64,000 bases of DNA, from the NCBI RefSeq assembly GCF_051903065.1, contig NZ_CP178439.1. One strand, given 5' to 3'. Both the position numbers and the translations under genes were made by a program. How positions within the stretch are numbered: position 1 is the first letter of the stretch; every line of letters starts with the position of its first letter. Source of the DNA: Escherichia coli (GTDB taxonomy: Bacteria > Pseudomonadota > Gammaproteobacteria > Enterobacterales > Enterobacteriaceae). A model generated the notes under the pieces. It ran no database searches, was not told where the DNA came from, and saw nothing but the letters and a program-made list of their open reading frames with translations. Below are positions 40,881 to 59,202 of this stretch, piece after piece.

Positions 40881-40937
40881 TCCTGTTAAGGGGGAACCCT
40901 AACGGGGCTTCTCTTTGAACAAATCGAGGAGCGGAAA

Positions 40938-41315
40938 ATGTCATATCTTGAATATATCAATGAAGTAAAAGTGTCCGGGATAGTTATCAGTGCTGTGGAG
41001 AAAAAAATGACTGACCAGAGTATAGGTTTGTTAATAAAGCTCAAAAATAGGATGAAGACAGAAGTTGATGGTGAAATCACTGAGAGAGAATTTTCAGTTC
41101 AAATCAAGGTGTCGCCTGAAATGTATTCAACCTGTTTCACTGGTATAAATCAGGGTGATGAGTTGATGGTCTCCGGTTATATTGTTGTCGATACTATTAT
41201 GATTGAAGGGAGAGAACATCCTCTTGACTACATGAGAGTGGTAGCAACAAGTAAGTTGGCTCACATACCTAAACCTCTAAAAGGTTTTGGACAAAGTAGC
41301 TTTAATCAGATCTGA
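40938..41315 (+). CDS. Hypothetical small protein
   Basis: 125-aa ORF with an RBS-like GAGGAG upstream. Confidence 0.5.
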   Translation: MSYLEYINEVKVSGIVISAVEKKMTDQSIGLLIKLKNRMKTEVDGEITEREFSVQIKVSPEMYSTCFTGINQGDELMVSGYIVVDTIMIEGREHPLDYMRVVATSKLAHIPKPLKGFGQSSFNQI

Positions 41316-41375
41316 CATTAAACCCACCCTAAAGGGGAGAAATCCCTTCATGGGATTTCTCCTTTTGGAGTCCCC

Positions 41376-42353
41376 ATGAAACAAAAATTTAGGGCTACTG
41401 CAATAAGTAGTAATCAACTTAGTTTTTTTTCTATACTCGATATAGATGAAGATGAAATAACGCAAATAGTTGATTCACCCAAAGAGCATTTAAATGATGC
41501 TTACACGTCCGGATTAAACTTTAAATCAGAAGAAAGTAACATTTCTGAGATAAATTATGATTCTGAAAGGCGTGAAAATCACCTTTATGAAAAATCCAAA
41601 TTACTTAAAAATCAGATTTTGCATACAATTAATTTTGCAACAGAAACAGATTATCTATATACGGTTGAAGAATATAACCCAGATTTGGGTGGTCTGGTAA
41701 TAGAATGGACCCCTGAGGATGTGTATGTTGTTTTTCTATCCGCTATGGAAGAGTCTTTGGAAATCATTAAAGAACTAGTGTTGAGGAGAAAGTTATTCTT
41801 CAAAGATGACAATGGTAATATCACAGTGAATCCACTTTTAGAAGCTGAAACACGGTGGTATATGTCAAAATCATTTGAATACACTTGTTTATCTCATGGA
41901 CTTGATGCATGTGAATTTAGAGCGGAATTAAAATCATGGCTCTATTATCATTCGCATCGTTCGATTAGTGAAAACACGAAATTAGCTGAATGCAGGAATG
42001 ATGATGAAATCATTTTGCATGATTGCAATGACGATATGGGCTGGGACATCTTCTTTGATCAGGATTATTTAATGTCAGAAAAAAAACTGGCTGTTAAATG
42101 GACTGACAGGGAAATTATGGATGTTTACATAAAAGCTTTTAAATCCTCATTAGAGTTGTTTGACGAGCTTGTTTCATGTGATCTGTTAACTAAACGAAAC
42201 GCTTTTGGCAAGTTAGAAATCAATCCAATATTCGAAAATCATTTTGAATGGATCATGTCTGAAGCTTTTGAAATAGTGGGAAATCATCTTGGTTATAATG
42301 TGCCTCAAATCAGGAAACTGATGGCAACTATTTGCCAAATGAATCTCAAATAA
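41376..42353 (+). CDS. Hypothetical acidic protein
   Basis: 325-aa ORF preceded by a hairpin and RBS GGAG. Confidence 0.55.
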   Translation: MKQKFRATAISSNQLSFFSILDIDEDEITQIVDSPKEHLNDAYTSGLNFKSEESNISEINYDSERRENHLYEKSKLLKNQILHTINFATETDYLYTVEEYNPDLGGLVIEWTPEDVYVVFLSAMEESLEIIKELVLRRKLFFKDDNGNITVNPLLEAETRWYMSKSFEYTCLSHGLDACEFRAELKSWLYYHSHRSISENTKLAECRNDDEIILHDCNDDMGWDIFFDQDYLMSEKKLAVKWTDREIMDVYIKAFKSSLELFDELVSCDLLTKRNAFGKLEINPIFENHFEWIMSEAFEIVGNHLGYNVPQIRKLMATICQMNLK

Positions 42354-43469: not shown

Positions 43470-43837
43470 ATGGGATTTGTTATGAAACCTCTGATATTTG
43501 TATCTCAGAGTTATCCCATCTTGAATTTAGTGCGTTTTTAAGTACGGATGGTGCTGCTACCATTGCTATAGCAAAAAACGGAACTAATTTTACTGGACTT
43601 ATGCAACTGAATAACGACTATTCTTTATTGTTTTATCATGATGGTAAAATAAATATGGAAGGTCTGATTAAACAAATGGAATTAAAAGGTTATATGTATC
43701 AGGGAGCAATGGGCAATGATGATGTTGTTGCTGAGTTTCCCGGTATTCTTTTAATTTCACCAGAGTAGCTTTAATATCAACCCTATCGGGAAATCTTTCC
43801 CGTTGGGGAGGGTTTCCCCTTTTTTTTGGAGAAACCC

Positions 43838-44965
43838 ATGACTTTAAATACTTCAATGCTTAACAAAGTATCTGCAAAACAAATCTCTGAGAATTTTGCA
43901 AAATCATATCCAGATTTACTGGAAGGTGCAGTTATAACAAAAATTGAAATAAGTGGCTGTCAAGGATCGCGTCGAACCGATAAAATCGATTTGTCTTATG
44001 ATGGAGATGATATTACGGATCAAAAAAGCGTATCTAAAAGCGAAGTACGCTGGATTGACATAAAAGCCCTTAGCTTCAAAAGTACGATTACCAGCAGAAT
44101 ATCAACTCTTTGCTCACGCTTGTGCATCCGCTATAGCAATATGTGGATTTTACCAGTATCCAGTATGGAAGAGTTTCTGGAAGGGGCCCAAGAGATTGAA
44201 CGAGAGTTTCAGGCAGGTATTCAAAACGTTGTAGACAATTATGAGATGCATATTGAGGCTGAAAAAAATAGAAGCCCAAGAATGTCTTCTTTGATTGATC
44301 AGTTGAAATTAACTAAAGATGATTTCATAAAATCCTTTAGATTTAATATTGCTCACTTTATTCCTTTTACGCCTATTAGCGTTGAAGGTGATGAAACCCA
44401 GGACTACTATCAGGAACAATTGATAACAGATCTGGCAGAAGAAGCAATGAAGGTTTATGAAAAAATTAGCAAAAATAACAATTTGCGCTCAAGTACTATT
44501 GACCGACTGAAGCAAATGCAAAATAAGATCATTAGCTTCATGTTTATACATAAAGAGGCGGCAGTACTTGCAGAAGCTATAAAACACATAATGAATAATT
44601 TACCTAAAGGTGCCATTTCTGAACCTCGCGACGTTGCGGTGTTACAGCAGTGGTTTTATTTCATGAGTGATGCTTCAATGTTAAAGCGTATTATTTCAGG
44701 AGAGCAAAAGGTTACTGACTGGTTGGAATCTATTACCAGATCATTTAATCAAAGCTCACAAACAGAACCGAACGCGCTACAGAACACAGGTATTGAAGCT
44801 ATTTTAGATTCAACAAATGTGTTCCAGGTTGAACCTGTCGTAGAGAACGATATAAATAACAGCACGTTTTCAAACACTGATCCTGTAGCTGAACCTGAGA
44901 AATCAGTTTCGCAACAGGAAGACAATGTTGAAAATGGTTTTGATATCGAGCTCAAAGGCTGGTAA
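43838..44965 (+). CDS. Hypothetical protein between the AAA+ ATPase and the vWA protein
   Basis: About 375 aa; ATG at 43838 after RBS GGAG (track start 43826 is a TTG). Confidence 0.55.
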   Translation: MTLNTSMLNKVSAKQISENFAKSYPDLLEGAVITKIEISGCQGSRRTDKIDLSYDGDDITDQKSVSKSEVRWIDIKALSFKSTITSRISTLCSRLCIRYSNMWILPVSSMEEFLEGAQEIEREFQAGIQNVVDNYEMHIEAEKNRSPRMSSLIDQLKLTKDDFIKSFRFNIAHFIPFTPISVEGDETQDYYQEQLITDLAEEAMKVYEKISKNNNLRSSTIDRLKQMQNKIISFMFIHKEAAVLAEAIKHIMNNLPKGAISEPRDVAVLQQWFYFMSDASMLKRIISGEQKVTDWLESITRSFNQSSQTEPNALQNTGIEAILDSTNVFQVEPVVENDINNSTFSNTDPVAEPEKSVSQQEDNVENGFDIELKGW

Positions 44966-45042
44966 CTGTTTGCTTTATTAAAAACCCCAGATGGGTACTT
45001 CACCATCTGGGTGAGTACCCCTTTTTTATAAAGAGGTATTCT

Positions 45043-47055
45043 ATGAAATTAGATCTTAAATCATCACCGCGCCATATTAAGCGTTTACAGAATATAGCAA
45101 AAGTCATTAGCGGCTTAGGCGATGTAAGAGTTGTAATAGACGACAATACCAAAGGACCGTATTTTGATCCTGTAAATAAAGTTTGTGTTTTACCAAACGG
45201 CGATTATAGCGATGATGACTTTGTCAGTCTGATTGAAGGTTTTACCTGTCATGAAGCTGGTCATGGTCGCTATACCGACAGCGAGGTTTACAGTGACGCC
45301 TTTAATAGTGTTCTCAAGTCATCTGAAGGGTTTACACGCTTCGATGACGGAATGAATGCAGAGTTTGAGAGCCTCGCTGAGAAACGTAAAGCTTATAGCA
45401 GGGCAAAACGTCTTACCGGGCTTATAAATCTGTTCGATGATGTACAGATGGAAGAGAAGGTTGGTAACGATTATCCGGATGCAAAGCGGCGGCTTGCAGC
45501 CACTTACGCACTGATGGTTAAAGCCGGAAGGATGACTCCTGATATATCTTCTCGTCCGGAAAATCCTGTCCTATTTATTGAGTGGTATCTGCTTAACTCA
45601 TTGCGAGTAAAAGTCCTTCAGCAGGCAGGTCACAAAGAAACACTCGATCCGTTTTTTGACTATGCCCAAAAGATACTTTCTCCAGTAATTTCTGATGTTG
45701 AGGAAATTTTTCATGATGCTCTTGGTTGTGAAAATACTCAGGGCTGTGAATCCCTTGCTCGTAAGACCCTGGCTCTTTTAGAGAGACTGCGGGATGAGGC
45801 AAGGGAACAACAGCAGCAGACAGAGCAGGAGGAGCAGGAGGCATATGATGAATCCGAGACCGAGACCGAGACCGATACCGAATCAGAAGATAAATCGCTT
45901 GAGTCGACTGATAGTCGTGAGGATGATTCTGAGGACGATAGTGAAGGTCAGGCAGATACTTCCGATAACTCTGATCTTGCTCAAGAGGGATGTTCTGAGC
46001 CTTCAGAACTTGCTGAAGATAACGAGGGAAATAATGAACCCACCGGTGGCAATCCCACAGGTGATAACATTATTGAAGACGATACTGATGCGATTAACCC
46101 TTCCGAGAGTGAATCAGATGAAGCCAGTTCGACTAACGTTGAAGATGAAAGTAACTTTTCATCGGCTCAATGGGAGATACTGGCAGATTTGTTGGATGCC
46201 TTTCTTGGCAGTGATGAGGATAGCGAAGATTATCACGATGCTTTGGCTAAAGAGATTGAAGGTATTGCATCAAAAGTATCCGATGACGTGAAAGCCGAAT
46301 TCGGTGCTTCTGAATGGGATATCCCTGATCTCCTTATCGATTTGAATGTTTACAATGAGGCTTTGTCTCTGAGTCATTCAATCGGTAGCGACTTGTCTGT
46401 TTTACAGCAGGTTAAAATGCGTGGCCGAAACAAAACTCATGAGCGTGGAATTACCTTCGATGGAAATCGATTAATTCTGTCACCAATGGGAGTTCGTGAT
46501 GTCTTCAGAGCTCAAAGCGAATCTAAAAATAGAGGGCATGTTGGCCTCGTATTAGTTCGTGATATTTCAGCGTCAATGGCTAATGATGAAAGATATATTC
46601 ATGCCATTAAGTCAGATCTTGCTTTATCGATGGCCGCTGAAAGTTTGTCAAAAATGCATGTCTCCAATATAGTCTTTCCCTTCAAGGAAAGTGAATTTGA
46701 GATTATCAAAACGTTTGATCAAAGCGTTGAGGAATCTCTATCGAAATTCACTCTTGGATGTAAGGGTTATTATACCCCTACGGGATCGGCTTTAATGGCA
46801 GCTGTTGATCTGTTACTTGACAGCCAATTCGATAGGAAAATAATTTTTCTTATAACTGATGGTTATCCGAATAAATCGGAATTTACTATCGGCGAAGTTA
46901 TGGAAAAGGCTAAATGTAATGGAATAGAAATCGTTGGTGTTGGTATTAAGACTGATGAAATAATTGGTTTTGAAACGGACACTTTCGTAACAGTTGATGA
47001 TACTTCTTTATTGTCTATTGAAGTCAGTAAGCTAGTTCATCAAATACTTTCTTAA
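45043..47055 (+). CDS. von Willebrand factor A (MIDAS) domain protein with N-terminal HExxH and an acidic linker
   Basis: 670 aa; HEAGH near residue 70; long D/E/S/T-rich linker; C-terminal vWA with D-x-S-x-S (DISAS), Thr (YTPTGS) and Asp (ITDGYP). Confidence 0.8.
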   Translation: MKLDLKSSPRHIKRLQNIAKVISGLGDVRVVIDDNTKGPYFDPVNKVCVLPNGDYSDDDFVSLIEGFTCHEAGHGRYTDSEVYSDAFNSVLKSSEGFTRFDDGMNAEFESLAEKRKAYSRAKRLTGLINLFDDVQMEEKVGNDYPDAKRRLAATYALMVKAGRMTPDISSRPENPVLFIEWYLLNSLRVKVLQQAGHKETLDPFFDYAQKILSPVISDVEEIFHDALGCENTQGCESLARKTLALLERLRDEAREQQQQTEQEEQEAYDESETETETDTESEDKSLESTDSREDDSEDDSEGQADTSDNSDLAQEGCSEPSELAEDNEGNNEPTGGNPTGDNIIEDDTDAINPSESESDEASSTNVEDESNFSSAQWEILADLLDAFLGSDEDSEDYHDALAKEIEGIASKVSDDVKAEFGASEWDIPDLLIDLNVYNEALSLSHSIGSDLSVLQQVKMRGRNKTHERGITFDGNRLILSPMGVRDVFRAQSESKNRGHVGLVLVRDISASMANDERYIHAIKSDLALSMAAESLSKMHVSNIVFPFKESEFEIIKTFDQSVEESLSKFTLGCKGYYTPTGSALMAAVDLLLDSQFDRKIIFLITDGYPNKSEFTIGEVMEKAKCNGIEIVGVGIKTDEIIGFETDTFVTVDDTSLLSIEVSKLVHQILS

Positions 47056-47126
47056 TAAACTCTACCCAATCGGGGCAAAAGGCCCCGGTGGGTCTTTTTG
47101 CTCCATGAAGGAATAAGGAGCAAAAT

Positions 47127-47348
47127 ATGACTCAGATAAAAACTTACCGTGTAGAACATGAAAAAGTCGGTGCGATGCATAAAGTCCGTATTTTCGGACG
47201 TGTTGGTGAAGTTATAAGCAATGATAGCCCTCAGGAAAGAATCTTCCGCGAAGTCACTATAGCGGAGGGTAATAGCCAGCAGGCTGCGTTACTTGTAGAT
47301 AACTACATACAGCGTCTTGAGAATAATGGCTTCACGACTGAAGCATAA
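47127..47348 (+). CDS. Hypothetical small protein
   Basis: 73-aa ORF with RBS AAGGAG upstream, between two hairpins. Confidence 0.45.
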   Translation: MTQIKTYRVEHEKVGAMHKVRIFGRVGEVISNDSPQERIFREVTIAEGNSQQAALLVDNYIQRLENNGFTTEA

Positions 47349-47461
47349 ATGTTGAGGGCCCCCGGGCCCTCTTTCTTAAATTCTGCGTTGTGGGTTTCTC
47401 CCTGTCTTCTGCACCGCAGAAGGCATTGAGAAACTCACAATGCCAGATAAGAGAGATCATC

Positions 47462-48694
47462 ATGACTTATGCATCCCCGGCTCTTCGTCGTAATCCACAG
47501 GAAGTATCTGAACACTTTATTAAACTCGTTCATGCTCGAATTGCTGAAGTGTCTGGCTGGAAGTATATATTCGAAAGAATACCTGCTTTCAAAGACGCTT
47601 GTGCAAAAGCCCCGAGCCAGGTTCCTTGCCCGTTTACTGGCGCAGGGAAATCGAAGTTTCGTTTCCGACAAAAAGACCTTTATACCGGATGTGCGATCCA
47701 TAATGACTTTCCGGTAAATGAGTTTTGCGACGGAATTGATGTTCTGGCGAAATATTATGAATTAAGTAAAACGCAGACTTGCAAAAAGATTCTCTCAGAT
47801 TTTTTCGGGATGGATCTGCATGCTCCGTTAACTGACGCCGACATTGAAAATGAACGACGCTATAAATCAGCAGTTCGTGCCACAGAAACTCTTGACCGAG
47901 AGGAAGTGGCAAAGCGAATGCGAAAACTTGATGTGATGTATCACTATACCGGTGAAATCAAGCCTAATACTCCTGTTGCTTTGTACCTCCGTAATCGTGG
48001 GATCTCCCGCTTACTGAGTCACTTACCAAAGGATTTAGGCTTTAATAACCGGATCTACTATTGGGATAAAGATAAGCAGAAATCGATTATCTATCCGGGA
48101 ATGATTGCGATCTATCGTGACACCCGAGGTCGGCCTCTGACTATTCATAGAACATACGTAGACAAAAATGGTGATAAGGCACCTGTAGAAAATCCAAAGC
48201 TGATGATGAAGCCTCCTGCCGATATGACAGGTGGCTCAATTCAGTTGTTTGACCCTCACTATGATTCAGGTAGTTCGACCTGGACACTGGGAGTGGCTGA
48301 AGGGATCGAGAACGCGCTTTCTGTTGTAGAAGCGACTTCAACACCATGCTGGGCAGCCAGCTCCGCATGGTGCCTTGAAAACGTTACTGTTCCTGATTTT
48401 TTACTGCCTCCGCCGGATGTAAAATCTATAAACTTTTATATCTGGGCGGATAAGGATATTGCTAACTCACAAGGCACTCGTGCCGGTATTGAAGCTGCTC
48501 AGCGACTTCAAAGCCGCATGGTTGAGTTTTTGGCTAAACGATATCCCGCATCAAAGCTGACAATTGAAGTCTTCGAACCAGCACAAGATATTCCTGATGG
48601 GAAAAAGGGTATCGACTGGAACGATGTTCTCCAGTTAACAGGGCAGGATGGATTCCCGATTCACTGGGCTCCTGAATGTCTTAATCAGCTGTAA
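47462..48694 (+). CDS. TOPRIM-domain primase-like protein with N-terminal Cys-rich zinc-ribbon-like region
   Basis: CPFTGAGKSKFRF...GCAIHND Cys cluster; TOPRIM-like EGIENALSV (Glu) and IWADKD (DxD). Confidence 0.55.
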   Translation: MTYASPALRRNPQEVSEHFIKLVHARIAEVSGWKYIFERIPAFKDACAKAPSQVPCPFTGAGKSKFRFRQKDLYTGCAIHNDFPVNEFCDGIDVLAKYYELSKTQTCKKILSDFFGMDLHAPLTDADIENERRYKSAVRATETLDREEVAKRMRKLDVMYHYTGEIKPNTPVALYLRNRGISRLLSHLPKDLGFNNRIYYWDKDKQKSIIYPGMIAIYRDTRGRPLTIHRTYVDKNGDKAPVENPKLMMKPPADMTGGSIQLFDPHYDSGSSTWTLGVAEGIENALSVVEATSTPCWAASSAWCLENVTVPDFLLPPPDVKSINFYIWADKDIANSQGTRAGIEAAQRLQSRMVEFLAKRYPASKLTIEVFEPAQDIPDGKKGIDWNDVLQLTGQDGFPIHWAPECLNQL

Positions 48695-48964
48695 CAACGA
48701 TAACTCCCCCGCTTTTTGCGGGGGGGGTTATCTTATCAATATTATATTTTAAAATTGTATTGATAAGATAACCGCTTTCCTTCGTGATAATTACCTGCCT
48801 TTAAGGTCTTTTCACGGCTGAGATGCTTGCTCAGTTAAATAAATGTGCGGTACTACTGGCTATGGTCGGTTGTATGACATGGTTATTCCATAAACTATTA
48901 AAACCCATAACGGGAGTATTACCGTTATGGTGATGCTCGTCGTTTTACATCGGAGAGCATTTTA

Positions 48965-49486
48965 ATGAATTTTCAAATTAACGAAGTTTTTAATAAATTT
49001 GCTGCTGTTATAAAATCGCGCATCGTCAATGAACCATCGTCATGCTATTTGCTGCATGATAATGAGATAGATATAACGATTTTGAAACATAGCATATTAG
49101 AAAATGACAGAAACCTGTTGTACGTAGTTCGTCCTTCAGGAACGTGTTTGTTGCGTTGTGACAAATATTTCTATCCGAAATATTATCTTCGTTGCCGTGG
49201 AGATTATAAGTCATTCATATATGTCCATCTTGATCTACATAGTGGTGAAGCTAAAGAAATCACATGGGAGCAAGCAGACGATATGCTGTCTAGTCCAGGA
49301 AAACCCCCATTAAAAGGGAATCTTGGACGATTTGAGTATATAAAAGTTGTGGTTGAGGACCTTCGTATTCGAGGTTACGCTGATTATCTTCCTGCGTATA
49401 ATCTTGATGACCTTCGCCGTTTTGCCTTACAGGACGACCGCCCATCCCTTGTCAGATACATTGACAATGTCATGGCAACGGTCTGA
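48965..49486 (+). CDS. Hypothetical protein
   Basis: 173-aa ORF; no recognisable motif. Confidence 0.5.
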   Translation: MNFQINEVFNKFAAVIKSRIVNEPSSCYLLHDNEIDITILKHSILENDRNLLYVVRPSGTCLLRCDKYFYPKYYLRCRGDYKSFIYVHLDLHSGEAKEITWEQADDMLSSPGKPPLKGNLGRFEYIKVVVEDLRIRGYADYLPAYNLDDLRRFALQDDRPSLVRYIDNVMATV

Positions 49487-49564
49487 TTGATTGCTAATTG
49501 ATTTACATATTTTCCCTGATGGCCAACCTGCATCAGGGAGGCCTCAATAACGAATGGAGGCTGT

Positions 49565-50443
49565 ATGAAGTTAGCTACGGACCTGGTAAAAGCTATTTTG
49601 ATTAGAAATGGCGTTGAACCAGTAAATATAAGCGAATCATCTAAGTTATCTTTGAAACAACCACTGACAGAACTTAAATTCAGTTTATATTTGCGAACTG
49701 AGCATTTATCTCACTTCCTACCCGGTTATGTTTATTCTATAAAAGAATGTCCACTGTCATATGACATCGGGATCGAAATTCAGAAAATCTTCGAAAGTTT
49801 ACATTTGTTAAACGAAGAATTTGAATCCCTCGGTTTTGTTTCTGTATGGATAGAAATGCATCAAAGCATTTTTGAACAAAGTCGGTTTAAGAAAAGTAAC
49901 TTTACTTTTCGGGAGGAAGAGGTCGAGCTTGCTAAAGGGCTTGTTTGTTCTCACAATTCACAAATAAGTAATGCGGCTTATTTCTGGCTTCAGCACTTTG
50001 AGGAGTTTATGATTTATGTTCGTAATAAGCTTATCGACCTCTTTCGAGAGGCCTATGACCTGATCCTTGGAATGCAGCAAGTATTTTTCATTCGGGAAAA
50101 GGAAGAGCTGTTGAAAACTATAAGTTATGGCGATGAGCTGTATGAGGTGAAATTCATGGCGGCTGAGCTTTACTCTATCGAACAGAACTTAAAGTGTTCT
50201 GAATCGATAAGTACAAAATCTCAAGCTTCGGCATATATTAACCGCATCCGTGAGTTTGTGCGTTCGGGGTGGAGGCAGGGCTATATAGTCTGCCATCATA
50301 AGCGAAGTAATCAAATTTCATCATTGTCATTACCGATGTACTTGAAAGATACGTCAGGCCGAAGTGCTCGAAAGCGAGTAAAACGTCTTATATCTTCTAC
50401 AGTTTGTGGTAGAAATAAAGATTTAGGTCTTACAGATTTTTAA
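49565..50443 (+). CDS. Hypothetical protein, possible distant member of the tandem paralogue family
   Basis: 292 aa; N-terminal pattern LVKAILIRNGV resembles the other members; hairpins on both sides. Confidence 0.5.
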   Translation: MKLATDLVKAILIRNGVEPVNISESSKLSLKQPLTELKFSLYLRTEHLSHFLPGYVYSIKECPLSYDIGIEIQKIFESLHLLNEEFESLGFVSVWIEMHQSIFEQSRFKKSNFTFREEEVELAKGLVCSHNSQISNAAYFWLQHFEEFMIYVRNKLIDLFREAYDLILGMQQVFFIREKEELLKTISYGDELYEVKFMAAELYSIEQNLKCSESISTKSQASAYINRIREFVRSGWRQGYIVCHHKRSNQISSLSLPMYLKDTSGRSARKRVKRLISSTVCGRNKDLGLTDF

Positions 50444-50513
50444 TTAAATTATACCCATGTGGGGATCACACCCCATATGGGAGTGATCCCTTTTTTTATT
50501 GAGAGAGGATCAC

Positions 50514-51269
50514 ATGAAAATTATCGAAAAAATCATTAATGCCTTTTTGGTTGTTCAACATAAAAAAATACAGGTTAAAAACATTACATTTTTAGACAAT
50601 GGGCAGGGCATGTTCTCTGGTATGTCTTTTGATGCTGATGTTTCACTGGAGTTTATGTATGAATCAGCAAAAGCATATAGTTCTTGTTTCTGTGATATTC
50701 CCTTTCCAGGTTTTGAAGATGCAAATCTGGAGGAAATTACGAAATTTCAATTAGATGCTCTGAAGCAAAGAAAGAATCATTCTTTCTTTGTTAACCATTT
50801 GAGGTTTCCTATAGTTTTAAGGGAAGGGTGCAAAATCGAAAGAGGAGAAGTCTATTCAATTTCGAATTGCACTTATAATAAAGAAAGATTGCAGTATCTT
50901 TTTTCTCAGGATATTTACGGTAAGTTGTATAATTCCTTAGAGAAAGAATTAAGCTCGTTTTTCTCATTTATCAATGTTGAGGTGCACGAGTTGTTAAAAG
51001 ATGCTGTATGCTTTGCATTAAAAATCCTGAATAAGATATCTTTGGATACACCTGAAAGACTTATTAAAGCTTTTAATTATCGTGACTGGTATTGTAGTTA
51101 CGATGTTGAGCTTTTTAGGAAAGGCTTACCTGGTCATATTCTGGAAGAGCTCATTGCTCCAGATATCTTACTTTCAGACCTTAACGGTTGTAGAAAAATA
51201 CTTAGAAATGCAAAACGATTTCTAAATGGACATACACAAACCAATTGTGTTTATATTAAATATGAATGA
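50514..51269 (+). CDS. Hypothetical protein, possible distant member of the tandem paralogue family
   Basis: About 251 aa; ATG at 50514 after RBS GAGAGG; N-terminal IEKIINAFLVV pattern. Confidence 0.5.
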   Translation: MKIIEKIINAFLVVQHKKIQVKNITFLDNGQGMFSGMSFDADVSLEFMYESAKAYSSCFCDIPFPGFEDANLEEITKFQLDALKQRKNHSFFVNHLRFPIVLREGCKIERGEVYSISNCTYNKERLQYLFSQDIYGKLYNSLEKELSSFFSFINVEVHELLKDAVCFALKILNKISLDTPERLIKAFNYRDWYCSYDVELFRKGLPGHILEELIAPDILLSDLNGCRKILRNAKRFLNGHTQTNCVYIKYE

Positions 51270-51517
51270 TGGTTGGGGCCTGTTGATACCTCACACTCAG
51301 CTAAGTTGATGTCTGACAAAGAAATTAATAACCGAAGTGACTTGAAGAATTTTTCAAAGGTCTTTTTCAAAGAGTGTTTAAGTTCTGGTAAGTCGGAATA
51401 TGAAAACCATCTTAGTGAAAAAGAACATGCGCTTCGCTATAATTATTAATTAAAATTATTTTCTCCCATAGGGATTTCTCCCTATGGGAGAAATCCCTCT
51501 ATTAAGAGGGTATTGAA

Positions 51518-52438
51518 ATGAATGCTATACAAAAGTTAGTTGAATCTATTCTTGTTAAAATGGGTTTTGTTGGCGCTGTAGTGGAAAATATATATTTGGA
51601 TTCAAAACCATTTCGGCATATTCGATTTGTGGCTGATATTCCAGTAATATCTTTTCTACCTCATTTGGTGAAATATCTTAAGGGTGCAGACCATCTTTAC
51701 AGTGGTAACGATGATTTGCATCCTCTTTTCATTTATTTTTCCGAAGCGGCTACATTAAAAGCAGGTCCTGTAAATCTCGCGAACTTTCGTTTTGAAGTTT
51801 CTATAGCTTCAACTCATTTACGACTGGTCTCAGAGCAGCCTGATTTGCTTTTCAAAGGATTTAACCGGGATAATCTAGAATACGTTTATTACCGCTCAGA
51901 TTTGGCCTCTAAGGATCTTATACTAGGCCTTGTTGAACACGGTTCTCCTTTCATAAAACATCTACATGGACTTATACAAAAGCGAATTTTAAACGAGTTC
52001 TCTCTGATTTTTTCTGTTCTTGAAAAGATTTTAGAAAGCGCGAAGCCACAAATTCTTGCTTGCTTCCATAGTGTTGATTATGAAATGAACGTAAAAATAA
52101 TAGCCGAAGCTATACCTGAAACTGTATCTAATCAGATAGTCACATCTGATTATATAGTTAATTCTATATCAGATGCGGACAAGTTTATAAATCATGTTCG
52201 TCGCTATTTAGCAGGCAGGGTAATGAAGAGGCGGATATACGCTGAATTAGATGTTTGTGAAGAAACATCAAGTATTTCACTAGTGAACTTAGGATGCTTT
52301 ACGTCTCCTCTGCTCGTTACGGAATATCAAATGTTTAAGCCACACTCTTCAGGGTTATATCGAAAAGCTATAAACAACTCCTTAAAACAGTTCAAACCAG
52401 AAATGCATGTACCTTCTGAAGAACTCTTTTATAATTAA
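51518..52438 (+). CDS. Hypothetical protein, possible distant member of the tandem paralogue family
   Basis: 306 aa; N-terminal QKLVESILVKMGF pattern; hairpins on both sides. Confidence 0.5.
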   Translation: MNAIQKLVESILVKMGFVGAVVENIYLDSKPFRHIRFVADIPVISFLPHLVKYLKGADHLYSGNDDLHPLFIYFSEAATLKAGPVNLANFRFEVSIASTHLRLVSEQPDLLFKGFNRDNLEYVYYRSDLASKDLILGLVEHGSPFIKHLHGLIQKRILNEFSLIFSVLEKILESAKPQILACFHSVDYEMNVKIIAEAIPETVSNQIVTSDYIVNSISDADKFINHVRRYLAGRVMKRRIYAELDVCEETSSISLVNLGCFTSPLLVTEYQMFKPHSSGLYRKAINNSLKQFKPEMHVPSEELFYN

Positions 52439-53357
52439 TCTAACCCATCCGGGAACCTGCTTCCCGGTGGGAAGCACTTCCTTTTTAGTCATGAGGTAGT
52501 GTAAATGTTTAAAGAATCTGACCACGTGGAATTTGTTAGTGCCTTTCTTTATCAAAATTTAGGCCTTAATGTTTCCGCTGACGATATAACCGTTCAATTA
52601 TCTGATACTTCGTTCGACAAAGTAACCTTTGATTACGATGTAGATATCGATAATTTAAATTGTATGTTGGATCTCTACATATCTGAGCTAATAAAGCACA
52701 ACGCATCTTACTCCGATTCTATTCTTTTGAAACAAAAAATAATTTATTTTCTTGGAGTATTTAAGAATTTCGGATTTTTTACGTTTGATATTCGCGGATA
52801 TAGTAATACTTTAAGCCCAGTTAAAGTTATTGATATTGTTTCAATGATTATTAATGACTGTGAAGAGTTATCTAAAGCTAATTCTTCTACTGATGCTATA
52901 AGAAATCTTTATCTCGATAAAATGAAGGTGGATGGGAAAGTGTTAGTTGCGAAATTTGCACTTAAACAGTTTTTTCATTCCGACTTTGGTGACTTTATCT
53001 CATTTGTCGAGAAAAGAATTACAGATTGTCTTAATGAAACTTTAAGGATTATCAAAGCTGTTGAACATGGCTTTGTACGTGTAGGGCAGCATAAGATTAA
53101 TCGCCGTATTAATGATGACTTAAAGTTATGCATTGATTTCAATACTGATGATTATCCGGCAAATATGCCAGATATATATATTAAGTTTAACGATACATTT
53201 GATGGGAACGGGGCGTTATATTGTGACAATGATGCCCTCATATCCCTCTATACCGATGTTGCTTCAATTATCAATGTGCCGGTGATGATGGAAGTAAGAT
53301 TGATCAATAAAAGAGGGCGTGTTGTCTGTGATTCTTCGCATTCAACTTACGTATCTC

Positions 53358-54414
53358 GGCTTTGTTGAATAAATCGAACTTTTGCTGAGTTGAAGGATCA
53401 GATCACGTATCTTCCCGACAACGCAGACCGTTCCGTGGCAAAGCAAAAGTTCAAAATCACCAACTGGCCCACCTACAATAAAGCCCTCATCAACCGTGGC
53501 TCCATAACTTTCTGGCTGGATGATGAAGCTATTCAGGCCTGGTATGAGTCAGCAACACCTTCTTCACGAGGCAGACCTCAGCGCTATTCTGACCTTGCCA
53601 TCACGACTGTGCTGGTCATTAAACGCGTATTCAGGCTGACCCTGCGCGCTGCGCAGGGCTTTATTGATTCCATTTTTTCTCTGATGAACGTTCCGCTACG
53701 CTGCCCGGATTACAGCTGTGTCAGCAGGCGGGCAAAGTCGGTTAATGTCAGTTTCAAAACGCCCACCCGGGGTGAAATCGCACACCTGGTAATTGATTCC
53801 ACCGGGCTGAAGGTCTTCGGTGAAGGCGAGTGGAAAGTCAAAAAGCATGGCCAGGAACGCCGCCGTATCTGGCGTAAGCTGCATCTCGCCGTTGACAGTA
53901 AAACACATGAAATCATCTGCGCTGACCTGTCGCTGAACAACGTTACGGACTCAGAGGCCTTCCCCGGGTTAATCCGGCAAACCCACCGGAAAATCAGGTC
54001 AGCCGCCGCCGATGGCGCTTACGATACCCGGCTATGTCACGATGAACTGCGGCGTAAGAAAATCAGCGCGCTTATCCCTCCCCGAAAAGGTGCGGGTTAC
54101 TGGCCCGGTGAATATGCAGACCGTAACCGTGCAGTGGCTAATCAGCGAATGACCGGGAGTAATGCGCGGTGGAAATGGACAACAGATTACAACCGTCGCT
54201 CGATAGCGGAAACGGCGATGTACCGGGTAAAACAGCTGTTCGGGGGTTCACTGACACTGCGTGACTACGATGGTCAGGTTGCAGAGGCTATGGCCCTGGT
54301 ACGAGCGCTGAACAAAATGACGAAAGCAGGTATGCCTGAAAGCGTGCGTATTGCCTGAAAACACAACCCGCTACGGGGGAGACTTACCCGAAATCTGATT
54401 TATTCAACAAAGCC
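53358..54414 (+). mobile_element. IS903-like insertion sequence (IS5 family), complete, 1057 bp
   Basis: 18-bp inverted repeats GGCTTTGTTGAATAAATC at 53358 and GATTTATTCAACAAAGCC ending 54414; perfect 9-bp direct repeat ACGTATCTC at 53349-53357 and 54415-54423. Confidence 0.9.
53435..54358 (+). CDS. tnpA: IS903 transposase
   Basis: VAKQKFKITNWPTYNKALINRGSITFWLDDEAIQAWY matches the IS903/IS102 transposase as I remember it; GTG start gives 307 aa. Confidence 0.85.
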   Translation: MAKQKFKITNWPTYNKALINRGSITFWLDDEAIQAWYESATPSSRGRPQRYSDLAITTVLVIKRVFRLTLRAAQGFIDSIFSLMNVPLRCPDYSCVSRRAKSVNVSFKTPTRGEIAHLVIDSTGLKVFGEGEWKVKKHGQERRRIWRKLHLAVDSKTHEIICADLSLNNVTDSEAFPGLIRQTHRKIRSAAADGAYDTRLCHDELRRKKISALIPPRKGAGYWPGEYADRNRAVANQRMTGSNARWKWTTDYNRRSIAETAMYRVKQLFGGSLTLRDYDGQVAEAMALVRALNKMTKAGMPESVRIA

Positions 54415-54680
54415 ACGTATCTCTCGAAAGTAATGACCGATACAGAGTAACTGATCGCACATTACTAATAACTGAAGCTTTTGACGATTTTCGTAACGCG
54501 TCTCAATGATCCTTTTGCTTCAGTCCAAAAAAGTAACTTTGGTTGGCTGAAGACACTTGTCTATGACAATGTAAAATCTGTCGCTGGCATCTTCTTTTAG
54601 CTTAACCAAATTTTTATCTAACCCAGTGGGGAAGTCGCTTCCCTTCTGGGGCACTTCCTCTCAAATTCGAGGTAGTGTAT

Positions 54681-55637
54681 ATGACACATTCATCTGATGA
54701 TAAAAACTATGTCCGAGCAGTTCTGAGTTATCTTGGCATAGATTTTGATGAGGCGGATATAGTATTAAGTGTTTGCCATTGTCAAAGTGACGAGCTTTCT
54801 TTTACCTGTAATATCAAAGCTATTGAACTCAAGAATGCTGTTGATTTATATGTCGATAGTATCTCTGAGAATGAAATAGAAGCTTTAAACAGAGAATCTT
54901 TAAAATCGCGACTCTGTTACTTTCTTGAGGTGTTTGACGCAGTCTCTGGTCAGTACCTTGAAATTTCAGGAAAACACTTTGCAACTAGTCGTTTTGAATA
55001 TGATGATGTTTGTAGTGAAGTTCTTAGCATGTCTAATGATGTTTCTCAGTCGAAAGGTTATGACCGGGATGAATATAACAGACTGATGCAGGTTGATGGT
55101 CAGGTTATGATTGCCCGTTTTGCTTTGCAACAGTTCTGGGATACTCATTTTATTGGACTAATAACATTTGTATCTGAGTCTATAACATCGAGCCTCTATA
55201 AAGCTTATGAAACTTTTAGTGATATTAGTTTGGCTTGCTATAAACTGAGTGAATATTCTTATTCACGCTCTATCAACAGTGAATTGACCCTTAATATTTC
55301 ACTTAAAGAAAATGACTTCTGTGAGGACCTATCTGATTGCTATATGGAAGATGAGGCTTTACCTTCTGGTAGGGTAATTTCTCGACGCAACAATGACTCC
55401 ATAATAAGTATTTATGAGAGCTATGCTGCGGCTTCTTATATTCCGATGATTGCATCTTTGGAAGTCGTTGATGAATACGGCGAAGTGGTTACTGACCTCT
55501 GCCATACCGTTTATGTTTCAGAGTTAACCGGTGGGCGGATTAAAATCCACGACCGTAATGACTTAGTATCTGAAGTTTTCGATAACCTAAGAAATTTAAA
55601 TCTTGCAGTTGGAGATTCAGTTTCACAAGCTGCTTGA
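54681..55637 (+). CDS. Hypothetical protein, intact paralogue of the IS903-disrupted gene
   Basis: About 318 aa; aligns along its length with the 52505 product; same upstream context GAGGTAGTGTA(A/T)ATG. Confidence 0.6.
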   Translation: MTHSSDDKNYVRAVLSYLGIDFDEADIVLSVCHCQSDELSFTCNIKAIELKNAVDLYVDSISENEIEALNRESLKSRLCYFLEVFDAVSGQYLEISGKHFATSRFEYDDVCSEVLSMSNDVSQSKGYDRDEYNRLMQVDGQVMIARFALQQFWDTHFIGLITFVSESITSSLYKAYETFSDISLACYKLSEYSYSRSINSELTLNISLKENDFCEDLSDCYMEDEALPSGRVISRRNNDSIISIYESYAAASYIPMIASLEVVDEYGEVVTDLCHTVYVSELTGGRIKIHDRNDLVSEVFDNLRNLNLAVGDSVSQAA

Positions 55638-55900
55638 TTCTTTCCCTGATTTTGATTTTTTCTCACATACTCTTATGGCACGGTTTCCGTGCCTTTTTTT
55701 TGCCTCGCTTACAAGCGTCTACTCCTCTTCTACCTATCCCACCTTACATCACCACTTAAAATCTATCTTTCTAATTCCATTATCCTTTTCGTAGCCTCTA
55801 ATGCTCTGGTATGAACATACTCTTTAAACTCAAAAAAGTGCTATTAACGAAAAAAAATCCCTAAAGAGATTTGTATACTGTTCTCAACCAAGGAGAGCTC

Positions 55901-56176
55901 ATGAATGAACTAAAATCCAAAAACGAGAACAGTACCAAAAGCAACTTTCCCCCGGTTGATAATCAGTTTTGCTTTTACCATGTTGATTTCAGCATAGAAC
56001 GACTACTTTCTACGGCCGAGGATCTCCAGCTTGAGTACATCTTCCAGAAACCTGGAAGTGAAGTAAGAAAGGATTTGGTTGAGCGATTCGAACGTGGAGA
56101 GCGCTTTGTTACAGCTTCACACTGTGACAATTTCTGTGAAATCCTTGGTTGTCAAGGCCATCAGGAAAATGCATAA
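55901..56176 (+). CDS. Hypothetical small protein
   Basis: About 91 aa from the ATG after RBS AAGGAGAG (track ORF 55871). Confidence 0.45.
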   Translation: MNELKSKNENSTKSNFPPVDNQFCFYHVDFSIERLLSTAEDLQLEYIFQKPGSEVRKDLVERFERGERFVTASHCDNFCEILGCQGHQENA

Positions 56177-56220
56177 ACCCATAAACCTACATTTCCACTT
56201 TTAAGGATGTTCACTAAAGA

Positions 56221-56811
56221 ATGATTGGAGAAAGTATTTTTGACTGGGTAATTTACGGAATATCCATTTTGATATTTGCCTCAGCACTAATTGAAGGAAA
56301 GACAACTCGCTACCCAGCACTTTTTTTCTATGGGAGTTTAATTTTAATGTTAATCCTGATAGTTGCTGGAGGCCTTAACTGGTGGTTCTACAGGTCAAAA
56401 TATGGCGCAGTAATCGTTATCTTCACAGTGGTTTCTTTACTGATGACTCGATTCCGCCTGGTCATATATAAATTAAGATTAAGAAAGTTAGTTTCAGAGA
56501 TCAGATTTCGTATAAAAACGGGTTTTCGTATAATTCTTGTTTTGTCGGATAATGAGGATGAGCGTAATGTTCTGCTGTCTATGCTTAGCAACGTATTGCC
56601 AGAGCAAACGCTTATTCACACGCGTGATGCTCTCGGACCTCATTCAGGGCCTATCCTAAAAGCTCTTGAGCTACATCATCAACAGGGAACAGGTTACATA
56701 CTCGTCTGTGAACAACAAATCTCAGCGCGTACGTGGTTGAGTATCGTAGAAAATGGGAAACCTGATACATCTATAGCTGTTAATTTTCATTCGATCCCAG
56801 AAATGGAGTGA
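56221..56811 (+). CDS. Hypothetical membrane protein (three predicted N-terminal helices plus soluble domain)
   Basis: 196 aa; hydrophobic segments at residues 10-25, 35-55 and 62-80. Confidence 0.5.
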   Translation: MIGESIFDWVIYGISILIFASALIEGKTTRYPALFFYGSLILMLILIVAGGLNWWFYRSKYGAVIVIFTVVSLLMTRFRLVIYKLRLRKLVSEIRFRIKTGFRIILVLSDNEDERNVLLSMLSNVLPEQTLIHTRDALGPHSGPILKALELHHQQGTGYILVCEQQISARTWLSIVENGKPDTSIAVNFHSIPEME

Positions 56812-56818
56812 TTTTTCA

Positions 56819-57076
56819 ATGAGTAGAACCGTTTCACAAAGTGTCACAGAAGATTGTCTTTTTGATACCCGCACACAAGTCAGATTACAACTAAGTCGAA
56901 GCGTTCATAAAACGCTGGCATCTGCTAAAGAAATTTTACAGGGAAGGGGGGTTGATTCGGTCTCTATTGAAGATCTTGTGCGAGCCTGTCTTGAAGAGAA
57001 CCAGCCAATTGATCTCGCCTCACTTTACCTTGAAAATCTCTTAAAACAGAAAGGTACCAGCATTTGCGATTTTTAG
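56819..57076 (+). CDS. Hypothetical small protein
   Basis: 85-aa ORF 8 bp after the preceding stop. Confidence 0.4.
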   Translation: MSRTVSQSVTEDCLFDTRTQVRLQLSRSVHKTLASAKEILQGRGVDSVSIEDLVRACLEENQPIDLASLYLENLLKQKGTSICDF

Positions 57077-57149
57077 TGTTTTCAAACCTATTAGATAAAA
57101 TGCCGGTTGTGTTTATATAACATCAATAATTTCATGCAACAGGTAAAAC

Positions 57150-57686
57150 ATGAGTACTCAAAAGCAACTTTCCAGAACAACCGGCACTGAACGTATGTTT
57201 AAGGAAGAGCTGGCGTTATCCTTAATTTGTTGGGTTTTCACCAGTCCATTTACCAACTGGACCGATAAAGTCTTCAGTGGTATTGAAGTTCCGTCTGAAG
57301 GACCGTCAACATTACTGGGTGAGGCTGAAAAATTCTTTCGTTTTGTCGTTAATGAAGAAGGCTACGACGCAGGAAGGGCTGCTCTTGGTCTTGACCTATG
57401 TTGTTTTTCACTTCCGTCGTGTTTGTTCCCGGACGCTGCCCTGTCTGAGGAAGAGGTTATGAGTAAGTTAACCGGAGAAGTTATCCATGGGATTCTTCTT
57501 TCCTTACCTGAATTTATTGATATGCCAGAAGTGCTCGCTTACCAGGTCAGGGATGAAATTCTTGCTTTTAACACTCGCTGTGGAGACGGGATCTTTCATG
57601 GTTGGAACACGGCTTCAGAATTGTGGAAGTTTGAAATCTTTCCCCGCACCACCATCATGATGCAGCATACTTCGGCAATACATTAA
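57150..57686 (+). CDS. Hypothetical protein
   Basis: 178-aa ORF. Confidence 0.45.
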   Translation: MSTQKQLSRTTGTERMFKEELALSLICWVFTSPFTNWTDKVFSGIEVPSEGPSTLLGEAEKFFRFVVNEEGYDAGRAALGLDLCCFSLPSCLFPDAALSEEEVMSKLTGEVIHGILLSLPEFIDMPEVLAYQVRDEILAFNTRCGDGIFHGWNTASELWKFEIFPRTTIMMQHTSAIH

Positions 57687-57702
57687 AATTAGGCGGGGCA
57701 GA

Positions 57703-58149
57703 ATGCATAAAAAACTTTTTCTTCTCGAATGGAAACCCTGTCAGAGCCGCGTATGGGCCGGTTGGATGGCCCTGTGGTTGACTATCAGTTTTCTGATGTT
57801 ATCTGCCTTGCTTATGACAGATCATCTCCTGAACAAAGTCATCCTGCCGCCAACATGGTTGTTGATCTGGTTTTCGCCAATGCTGGGGTTTTTGATAAAA
57901 GTTCGCGTCGTCGAAACTCAACATTTCCTGGAGCATGACCTCTGTGTTGCAGGTTTCTCTTTTTACCGCTGGAAGAGGTTAGTTTCTCCCGGGCTTTGGT
58001 CAGTTGACTGTATAAATGGTCGTTTTCGCCTCAATCGGATCACCCAGGTGGGTAAGACTATCCACTATCCATGGCGTCTCCATTATCATCCTTTGTTCAT
58101 GAGCCCTATCGAACATAAATCGCATGCTGTGAAAGCTGTTTCAAAATGA
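57703..58149 (+). CDS. Hypothetical membrane protein
   Basis: 148 aa with two hydrophobic helices. Confidence 0.45.
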   Translation: MHKKLFLLEWKPCQSRVWAGWMALWLTISFLMLSALLMTDHLLNKVILPPTWLLIWFSPMLGFLIKVRVVETQHFLEHDLCVAGFSFYRWKRLVSPGLWSVDCINGRFRLNRITQVGKTIHYPWRLHYHPLFMSPIEHKSHAVKAVSK

Positions 58150-58221
58150 CTTCTTTAGAGGTTTACATGACATTTATGTTCTGCAAGGTCAGCCAGGGCA
58201 GCAAAATTGATTTGAAATAAC

Positions 58222-59202
58222 ATGAGCCTGGAGAAACGTATGAGTTATGACGATTTGCCCTATTTTCGTGACCAGATTCTGGAACGTATCGACTCGCTTA
58301 AGTGTTTTCTTTCGAACACCCCCCCGCTGATGGCAAACCTGATGACTGTCTCCACCGTATCTCGAACAGAAGAGCGACTGAAGCAGGTTAAACCCATCAG
58401 GGTTAGTGTTAAAGACGATGCTTCGGTTGAGGAAATTATTCAGGCACTTACTGACATCTGTGTGGATGACATAGAGTCATTAAGTCATGATTCCACCAAA
58501 GTGACCACTAAATACCCGGGTCTTATCATTGTCCCAGAAAGAGCAGATCTTCTCGAAAGCTTGATCACATCTATAAATGAAGCAAAAAATGATTTTGCTG
58601 CGGCAATGAGGCGTATCGATAATAAAAAGAATGTCCGTTTTGATAAAGTGCACAAGAAGCTCCCGGGCCTTGTCGCTATGCACTCAACAAGAAATGTCCT
58701 TTTCATCAAGTCCCAGCTTAAAAAAGTTACTTTTTCATGGCGGCTAAACCGAAACCAGGAAGTTAAAACAGCAGAGCAACTTGTGAGTTTGTTGGAGCGC
58801 AGGAGAGCCTCAGAAGTAAAAAATGTAGCAACTACCAATTTGAATGTCGTGTCTAATATCGATAAGGCTTTACACCGTCTTGAATTTCACCCACTGAAGC
58901 AGGGCGAATCTTATCGCCTTTGTCGAACTAACTCTTTCCCTGTTCCGATTGCTCACATTTTTGCATTTAGGCCTGAAGGGCAGGAACGAAACGGGAATAA
59001 ATATGCTGAGACTGATTATTCAGTAGTAAAAGCATCCTTGCCCATTTTCGCAGCAGGCAACATACCTCAATTAAAAACGCTCTCTGACTGGGCTCCTGAA
59101 AACAGCCAGGGCCCGTCCAACCAACGGAAGCTGAGCCTGAAATATACAGAACTCGTGCCGGGGGCTGAGCTGGGCATTTTCATTGTCAGCCCCGAAAATT
59201 AA
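58222..59202 (+). CDS. tus: Tus-like replication-terminus-binding protein
   Basis: RFDKVHKKLPGLVAMHSTRNVL aligns with the E. coli Tus segment [21 protein letters not shown] as I remember it; 326 aa against about 309 for Tus. Confidence 0.55.
   Translation: MSLEKRMSYDDLPYFRDQILERIDSLKCFLSNTPPLMANLMTVSTVSRTEERLKQVKPIRVSVKDDASVEEIIQALTDICVDDIESLSHDSTKVTTKYPGLIIVPERADLLESLITSINEAKNDFAAAMRRIDNKKNVRFDKVHKKLPGLVAMHSTRNVLFIKSQLKKVTFSWRLNRNQEVKTAEQLVSLLERRRASEVKNVATTNLNVVSNIDKALHRLEFHPLKQGESYRLCRTNSFPVPIAHIFAFRPEGQERNGNKYAETDYSVVKASLPIFAAGNIPQLKTLSDWAPENSQGPSNQRKLSLKYTELVPGAELGIFIVSPEN

Follow-up and report, generated by a model that had tools for sequence, protein, structure and literature searches.

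The window analyzed here is a stretch of 64,000 nucleotides of Escherichia coli DNA (contig NZ_CP178439.1 of assembly GCF_051903065.1), and the subject is a tandem array of five plus-strand genes, g1 to g5, that occupies positions 49,565 to 55,637. Comparisons of sequence profiles show that these genes are ancient tandem paralogues of one family, which falls into clade A (g1, g2, and g3) and clade B (g4 and g5). Five "hypothetical proteins" are now one defined family with two clades, a fixed slot in the plasmid, and a copy number specific to each lineage. The family is linked to a co-regulated block of about 15 kb by an RNA element common to both, which conceals the ribosome-binding site. IncHI1 and IncHI2 plasmids are known for multidrug resistance in typhoid Salmonella and for the spread of mcr and extended-spectrum beta-lactamase (ESBL) genes, and roughly half of their backbones is without annotation. 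Databases have listed the array genes as hypothetical proteins ever since the sequencing of R27 and R478. The outcome is a clearly delimited orphan family together with a tidy element of regulation, both on plasmids of clinical importance; it does not amount to a demonstrated new system.

An earlier description made from the letters of the window (the sequence-only reading) placed five open reading frames (ORFs) on the plus strand at 49565, 50514, 51518, 52505, and 54681. These coordinates are correct and agree with the calls of the Prokaryotic Genome Annotation Pipeline (PGAP) in near-identical IncHI2 plasmids, including pG17-1, where all five ORFs are called hypothetical proteins. The same reading took one member to be split. 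This is true of g4, which is interrupted by the insertion sequence IS903, but g2 is also broken (W252*), so two members are damaged. What had been read as a g2 gene of 251 amino acids is a 311-amino-acid gene with a nonsense codon, after which the final 59 codons stay in frame up to 51449. The native lengths of all five genes are 292–318 amino acids. The coding segments are:

49565–50443, plus strand: g1, clade A, 292 amino acids, intact ORF; the IncHI1 orthologue is 51% identical.
50514–51269, plus strand: g2, clade A, cut to 251 amino acids by TGG>TGA (W252*) at 51267–51269, as seen by comparison with the intact 311-amino-acid allele of plasmid pTB601 and of IncHI1.
51270–51449, plus strand: in-frame 3′ remnant of g2, 59 codons and a stop; its translation is the C-terminus of intact g2.
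51518–52438, plus strand: g3, clade A, 306 amino acids, intact ORF.
52505–53357, plus strand: 5′ part of g4, clade B, 284 native codons up to IS903; the ORF as called runs 52505–53368.
54424–54509, plus strand: 3′ remnant of g4, the last 28 codons and a stop; the reconstructed protein is WP_000472043.
54681–55637, plus strand: g5, clade B, 318 amino acids, intact ORF, C-terminus -AA.

One Family, Two Clades

The genes g4 and g5 had been recognized as clear paralogues, and they are: the two proteins share 27% identity from end to end (blastp E 3e-36, hhalign 99.9%), and the upstream context GAGGTAGTGTA(A/T)ATG that the two genes were said to share is present. The membership of g1, g2, and g3 had been proposed tentatively, and they prove to be real members. 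Plain blastp finds only the match of g4 to g5 and a weak match of g2 to g3. In a first set of hhalign profiles, to which orthologues from IncHI1 and IncHI1B were added, g2 and g3 match at 92–95%, and g1 aligns with the others weakly, in co-linear order. Later profiles, enlarged with more divergent arrays from public assemblies, place g1 with g2 and g3 (97%, score 79) and join clade A to clade B (95.5%, score 66, 285 aligned columns). Against these scores of 66–79, block-shuffled target alignments reach 15.7 ± 2.5 with a maximum of 23, reversed alignments reach 12–22, and four unrelated neighbor proteins of similar size reach 10–17. Single-profile hidden Markov model (HMM) searches give cross-hits of 10–16 bits that join g1 to g2, g3, g4, and g5, while the best unrelated score among about 275 comparisons is 4.7 bits. 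Four neighbors were rejected as further members on background hhalign scores against the family: g0, the gene directly 5′ of the array, and h1, h3, and d6, which are other neighbors of about 300 amino acids.

Predicted Structure and Orphan Status

AlphaFold2 gives a good model of g3 (predicted local distance difference test, pLDDT, 84; predicted template modeling score, pTM, 0.81) and a usable model of g5 (pLDDT 74, pTM 0.65). The input alignment of the g3 model excluded clade B, and the two models are independent. Unrelated folds, the outcome that the sequence-only reading had named as fatal to a common family, are not seen in the order of secondary structure: the DSSP strings of g3 and g5 agree at 75% of the 285 positions paired by the hhalign alignment of sequences, compared with 27–53% when that alignment is shifted. 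Both models have an N-terminal H-E-E-H-H-E-(E)-H unit, a helical segment of about 60 residues, and a C-terminal beta-rich domain. The family comprises soluble alpha/beta proteins of about 300 amino acids. Their predicted architecture has three parts: an alpha/beta domain at the N-terminus, a long helical segment in the center, and a beta-rich domain at the C-terminus. Foldseek searches of AFDB50 join the g3 model to g1-type (292 amino acids, template modeling (TM) score 0.65) and g2-type models, with TM 0.56–0.66 across the range of g1 to g3, and join the g5 model to g4-type models at TM 0.8. The two clades also share weak third-party matches among uncharacterized proteins of about 300 amino acids from Dickeya, Photorhabdus, and Salmonella. 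That clades A and B have the same predicted fold is well supported but not proven.

The sequence-only reading tied the genes to no known family, and no confident match to a characterized family is found in Pfam, NCBIfam, PHROG, PADLOC, or the Protein Data Bank (PDB). Pfam gives no match for 55 members (14 and 41), NCBIfam and PADLOC give no significant match for any member, and PDB sequence profiles give no match; nor do the models resemble any known fold convincingly. PHROG yields no significant match for any member and none to an anti-restriction family, with only marginal matches (E ≥ 0.004) to unrelated families. A tblastn search against 50,697 phage records is also without a match. When the g4/g5 profile was run with HMMER against 1.84 billion representative proteins, 41 hits were returned, and nearly all of them are family members or fragments. 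One candidate relative, P0090, a Gram-positive LPXTG adhesin of 2078 amino acids (E 6.5e-7 over nine repeats), was judged spurious because the similarity per repeat is weak. No account of the family, the two clades, the slot, or the hairpin module was found in the searchable literature, and a search on "NgrC", the name attached to one of the distant look-alikes below, was unproductive.

The nearest distant resemblances are of two kinds. The phage family phrog_10163 has co-linear weak matches to residues 9–64 of g4 and residues 226–298 of the protein P0066. Four AlphaFold database (AFDB) proteins are of similar length and have Foldseek TM scores of 0.4–0.6 to both models: A0A5B8HP55 (Dickeya), A0A6L9JU38 (Photorhabdus), A0A603NEL0 (Salmonella), and A0A4R8FL14 ("NgrC", Modicisalibacter). 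However, phrog_10163 and the enterobacterial AFDB proteins of about 300 amino acids are only 9–17% identical to the array family. The g5 model also has a weak Foldseek match (E 2e-4, TMq 0.37) to A0A5Y2S904 of Salmonella houtenae, a DUF1738-containing protein of 708 amino acids; DUF1738 in this fusion protein is of the ArdC N-terminal type.

The residues kept in at least 70% of 65 sequences from both clades are A, L, G, L, Y, F, and L, all of them hydrophobic, and the lack of a conserved polar residue argues against an enzyme. The family has no signal-like N-terminus, as the sequence-only reading had stated for the five genes, and no transmembrane segment. Clade A proteins are near-neutral to basic (isoelectric point, pI, 6.1–8.5), and clade B proteins are acidic (pI 4.3–5.6). 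A set of diversified tandem paralogues that lack catalytic residues is the typical picture of an immunity array, and the proteins could in principle be immunity, antitoxin, or exclusion proteins that guard the host against a toxin or against entry of related plasmids. We hold this to be most improbable, since no toxin, Rhs, contact-dependent inhibition (CDI), or bacteriocin gene lies in the conserved neighborhood of eight lineages, immunity proteins are usually about half as large as the array proteins, and exclusion proteins are normally membrane-bound or lipoproteins, whereas this family has no membrane segment.

The g5-type proteins from eight sequences (including loci L002, L010, L014, L015, and L017) all end in -AA after a non-conserved tail. 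The endings are QAA, DAA, VAA, RAA, EAA, IAA, and KAA (55626–55637 in the window; L002:12946–12957), and g4-type proteins do not have the -AA. Such an ending recalls ssrA-like C-terminal ClpXP degrons.

A Fixed Slot With Lineage-Specific Copy Number

The window is IncHI2 backbone, with 99–100% identity to more than 1,000 IncHI2 plasmids (replicon IncHI2A, MOBH relaxase, MPF_F). Gene order around the array is kept in IncHI2, IncHI1, IncHI1B, and four more distant lineages. The 5′ part of this order consists of trhI, three hypothetical genes, a CobS-like AAA+ gene, DUF3150, a CobT-like VWA gene, a gene of 72–73 amino acids, and a primase gene. The 3′ part consists of g0, the array, small genes, a Tus-like gene, further genes, an integrase gene, and Hha. 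Neighbor proteins match the CobS, CobT, and primase families of phages. The array slot always lies between g0 and the run of small genes, 3′ of the AAA+/DUF3150/VWA/primase block. The gene that marks the 5′ edge of the slot is:

48965–49486, plus strand: g0, 173 amino acids (173–185 across lineages), not a family member, invariably 5′ of the slot and present at all loci, including that of the array-less plasmid.

The number of members within the slot differs between lineages. IncHI1, IncHI2, and L017 have three A and two B members. Two of each are found in L010 (g1 and g3, then g4 and g5) and in L014 (g2 and g3, then two of B type). L008 has one of each; its A member bridges g1 and g3, and its B member is equidistant from g4 and g5. 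The Klebsiella oxytoca plasmid pNDM-TJ11 (IncHI3-like, L023:17603–18505) has none, so that g0 is followed directly by the small genes; it keeps every neighbor of the array, and typing still classes it as conjugative. Both clades are represented in every array, each by one member or more, and A members lie 5′ of B members in all of them. Plasmid hits to DUF3150 number 1981 and those to g5 1406, which suggests that several hundred plasmids are without the array and that the array-less state, inspected in one such plasmid, may be common.

A Double Hairpin Before Each Gene

Two adjacent hairpins lie 5′ of g0 and of each array member, with z-scores of −2 to −7. The first hairpin (HP1) is a CCC...GGG stem of 9–15 bp. 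The second (HP2) holds the Shine-Dalgarno (SD) sequence in its 3′ arm and ends 3–10 nt 5′ of the start codon. In the window the modules are:

48905–48961, plus strand: module of g0, with HP1 at 48905–48930 and HP2, covering the SD, at 48932–48961; from folding, with a consensus structure in seven lineages.
49513–49562, plus strand: module of g1; from folding.
50454–50513, plus strand: module of g2; z −6.9, compensatory changes, covariance-model hit.
51460–51510, plus strand: module of g3; z −5.9, covariance-model hit.
52444–52502, plus strand: module of g4; from folding, RNAalifold, and a covariance-model hit.
54622–54678, plus strand: module of g5; from folding, RNAalifold, and a covariance-model hit.
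40876–40940, 41322–41378, 43776–43840, 44980–45045, and 47060–47129, plus strand: further double-hairpin copies, from the covariance model.

The two-hairpin architecture appears in 33 of the 34 junctions folded in seven lineages, despite their differing sequences; the exception is the junction of g3 and g4 in L017, where the gene start is wrong. The g4-type call in question (P0060, L017:5173–6138) starts 11 codons early, and the hairpin model there ends at 5208 and puts the start codon at 5206. RNAalifold recovers the structure in three groups of orthologous junctions, with 2–4 compensatory pairs in each, and a MAFFT alignment of all 28 junctions gives no consensus fold. The median pairing probability of the SD window (−14 to −5) is 0.74, compared with 0.54 for other genes of the same loci (P 1e-5). 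A covariance model based on nine junctions detects more copies in the window, each of which stops precisely at a start codon, namely those of h2, h3, DUF3150, the VWA gene, and the gene of 72–73 amino acids. It matches equivalent positions at all other IncHI-like loci and almost nothing else in the 64 kb. Judged by these matches, the module is a hallmark of the whole co-oriented block of about 15 kb (about 40.9–55.7 kb), where it precedes most genes, and it is this shared module that ties the array to the block.

The distal 5′ arm and loop of HP1 (GGGGAUCAC or GGGGAAGU; 50468–50490 and 54637–54657) are complementary to the 5′ arm of HP2, which is the anti-SD arm. The alternative helix is kept in 92–98% of cells, compared with 47–69% when it is slid, with a few compensatory changes across lineages. 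A switch that would free the SD by way of this helix is plausible. At the junction of g1 and g2, a U7 run follows the alternative hairpin and looks terminator-like. The distance from the upstream stop codon to the hairpins varies from 6 to more than 200 nt, and it is 100–200 nt at the junctions of the primase (toprim) gene with g0 and of g4 with g5, so coupling driven by ribosomes is not the sole or general trigger. Known hairpins that sequester the ribosome-binding site, such as translational coupling elements and the RNA thermometers ROSE and fourU, resemble the module in that its second hairpin pairs the SD just before the start codon and that an alternative helix, itself conserved, could release the SD. 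The module differs in being a double hairpin before at least 10 cistrons, in having no Rfam match, and in its inconstant distance to the upstream stop. The Rfam scan, which covered 47000–58500, gave only three sub-threshold matches to unrelated families, and no dedicated search for Frpo or ssi elements was made. An integron gene-cassette array was considered and rejected: no attC cores are visible, and the hairpins carry the SD and end at the next start codon.

Blocks of CobS-like AAA+, CobT-like VWA, DUF3150, and primase genes are known from phages and conjugative elements, and here the array is attached to such a block in the same orientation and with the same hairpin module. The array proteins share no similarity with the components of the block. 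A and B proteins may be viewed as subunits of a hetero-oligomeric accessory complex that would act with the AAA+, DUF3150, VWA, and primase proteins in plasmid DNA metabolism, with the hairpins fixing the proportions. The presence of both clades in every array with A before B, their complementary charge, the one module that marks DUF3150, the VWA gene, the gene of 72–73 amino acids, and the array genes as a co-regulated block, and the phage-family matches of the neighbors all point this way. Yet the block exists without the array in the Klebsiella IncHI3-like backbone, which retains all neighbors. Single members are lost or truncated in natural plasmids, and the hairpins that lie 100–200 nt from a stop mean that coupling is no general rule. 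We regard such a complex as possible, though rather unlikely; it is the main rival of the host-factor reading given below.

Natural Lesions and Selection

The insertion in g4 had been described as an IS903 near the stop codon with a perfect 9-bp duplication. This is so: excision of the element and one repeat restores the exact intact protein of 312 amino acids, and 28 codons are lost from the interrupted gene. The ends of the element are GGCTTTGTTGAATAAATC and GATTTATTCAACAAAGCC, and its size, its repeats, its single transposase ORF, and the 9-bp duplication all fit IS903. Its parts are:

53349–53357: left copy of the 9-bp target duplication ACGTATCTC, from the sequence.
53358–54414, plus strand: IS903 (IS5 family), 1057 bp, with 18-bp terminal inverted repeats and a transposase ORF at 53390–54358; called IS903B in related records.
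54415–54423: right copy of ACGTATCTC, from the sequence.

The truncated g4 protein is probably inactive because the lost tail holds five invariant charged residues of the g4/g5 alignment (R286, D291, R292, E298, and R304). The junction of g4 and IS903 is spanned by none of the 5,000 best PLSDB matches, a set dominated by copies of IS903. The insertion is judged to be recent and private to this plasmid.

Lesions of other members are found in related plasmids. The W252* allele of g2 was followed with a 61-nt probe centered on the site, which matches perfectly in 67 of 1116 IncHI2-type plasmids and with one mismatch in 1048. By this count the nonsense allele is present in about 6% of IncHI2 plasmids and intact g2 in 94%, and intact g2 has 311 amino acids in IncHI1 and in some IncHI2 plasmids. 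Plasmid pF217-MCR_313k (L019:1263–2231) has an independent lesion, with IS903B at the end of g1. In pTB601 (L004:9001–10536) the first ~185 codons of g4 are joined to the Tus-like gene by a deletion that has also taken out g5 and five small genes. The fusion is annotated as a single "terminus site-binding protein".

The five proteins are 41–64% identical between IncHI1 and IncHI2, with a nonsynonymous divergence (dN) of 0.26–0.48, compared with 63–80% and 0.13–0.28 for the upstream neighbors. The ratio of nonsynonymous to synonymous divergence (dN/dS) between IncHI1 and IncHI1B is 0.13–0.24 for the five genes and 0.07–0.21 for the neighbors. Orthology of g1 to g5 is stable and one-to-one between IncHI1 and IncHI2. 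The fast divergence proposed in the sequence-only reading is borne out in that dN exceeds that of the neighbors, though it proceeds under purifying selection. Taken together, the divergence values and the natural lesions show array genes that are under purifying selection and individually dispensable in natural plasmids. The same lesions could be taken as signs that the genes are functionless, slowly decaying remnants of old duplications: two of five copies are broken in this plasmid, deletions and insertions are found in others, and one lineage has no copies. Such decay is very unlikely in our view, as dN/dS is similar for all five to that of clearly functional neighbors, full-length frames are kept in lineages that are 25–50% identical, most IncHI2 plasmids retain intact g2, and the hairpins at the ribosome-binding sites are conserved with compensatory changes.

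Possible Function

The reading that we favor, with a probability of about 0.35, is that array proteins are binding proteins that act on host factors. Arguments for it are the accessory slot, the variation in copy number, the faster rate of divergence, the fact that plasmids can do without the genes, and the absence of catalytic residues. Array proteins would be non-enzymatic binding or adaptor proteins, made jointly with the neighboring block under translational gating, and they would act on host factors during establishment or maintenance of the plasmid in the cell. The paralogues would have come to differ in the targets that they recognize, and a protein of type A may form a working pair with one of type B. 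The role would be one of host interaction, perhaps anti-defence-like, and would lie outside the core replication or transfer machinery.

Several points weigh against this. No experiment, named relative, or known fold links the family to an activity. Foldseek gives no direct match between clade A and clade B models in AFDB50. The one-to-one orthology between IncHI1 and IncHI2 is stable, there is no sign of pervasive positive selection, and turnover of the array genes is below that typical of arms-race genes. The strict co-occurrence of A and B members and the coupling-like hairpins fit a stoichiometric complex equally well. Finally, the array is remote from the inferred origin of transfer (oriT), which makes the positional argument usual for anti-defence genes inapplicable.

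The sequence-only reading had pointed to anti-restriction and anti-defence families and to oriT or leading regions as places to look for relatives. The array does not lie in such a place. It adjoins the transfer region Tra2 (trhN/trhI), just beyond it. On the 264-kb circle of pG17-1 the array is at 48.8–53.8 kb, and mobI and the MobH relaxase gene are at 190.9–195.2 kb, with the cluster extending to traD at 197.3 kb. Other MOBH elements have oriT upstream of mobI. The array would therefore lie about 122–140 kb from the inferred oriT, almost opposite on the circle, and at that distance the positional argument for anti-defence fails. A leading-region anti-defence island was rejected on position. 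A different part of pG17-1, outside the window at 201–237 kb (L022:35284–48501 and L021:1–23110), holds a long run of small co-oriented genes beside Tra1, including two DNA methyltransferases, a PAPS-reductase-like protein, HNH nucleases, and Hok and RelE toxins. That block looks like an IncHI2 leading-region or anti-defence island much more than the array does.

An anti-restriction or anti-defence role of the array is only a possibility. The variable copy number in a fixed slot, the higher dN, the dispensability, the absence of conserved catalytic residues, and the acidic B clade are compatible with it. ArdA, KlcA/ArdB, ArdC, anti-CRISPR (Acr) clusters, and leading-region islands (Samuel et al., 2024, PMC11541004) resemble the array in being carried by conjugative plasmids and in consisting of small to medium soluble proteins without catalytic signatures. 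Tandem paralogues in variable number, an acidic clade, and dispensability for the plasmid are further points of likeness. In contrast, the array family has no sequence or profile match to these families and is remote from the inferred oriT. Its proteins have about 300 amino acids in three structural parts and are not compact DNA mimics, and they evolve under purifying selection with stable orthology.

A bolder form of the host-factor reading is a long shot. In it, the array would be a modular host-targeting or anti-defence family of A-type and B-type proteins with an unseen fold, whose expansion in each lineage would adapt IncHI plasmids to their hosts. A new RNA switch, present in repeated copies, would turn on the array jointly with the AAA+/VWA/primase block. 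It would be a double hairpin that works as a relay of pseudo-SD, anti-SD, and SD, and this switch could contribute to the temperature-dependent behavior of IncHI plasmids. The remaining probability, beyond the explanations weighed here, goes to something else. If the proteins manipulate host defences or physiology, they would be a new family with a new fold; otherwise, what has been gained is that a common plasmid backbone is now cleanly annotated.

Further Features of the Neighborhood

The only integrase nearby, a tyrosine recombinase, is encoded on the opposite strand at a distance of about 7 kb, and it is also kept in the array-less plasmid. An inverted repeat with 23-nt arms, GGTTATCTTATCAATATTATATT and AAAATTGTATTGATAAGATAACC, lies at 48726–48773, 5′ of g0 and directly after the terminator of the primase gene. 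It could be an operator or promoter region, and it is not kept in IncHI1. The primase terminator is the second canonical terminator found; the first follows the array:

55677–55701, plus strand: intrinsic terminator after g5, GGCACGG-TTT-CCGTGCC followed by T8, with the stem-loop at 55677–55693.

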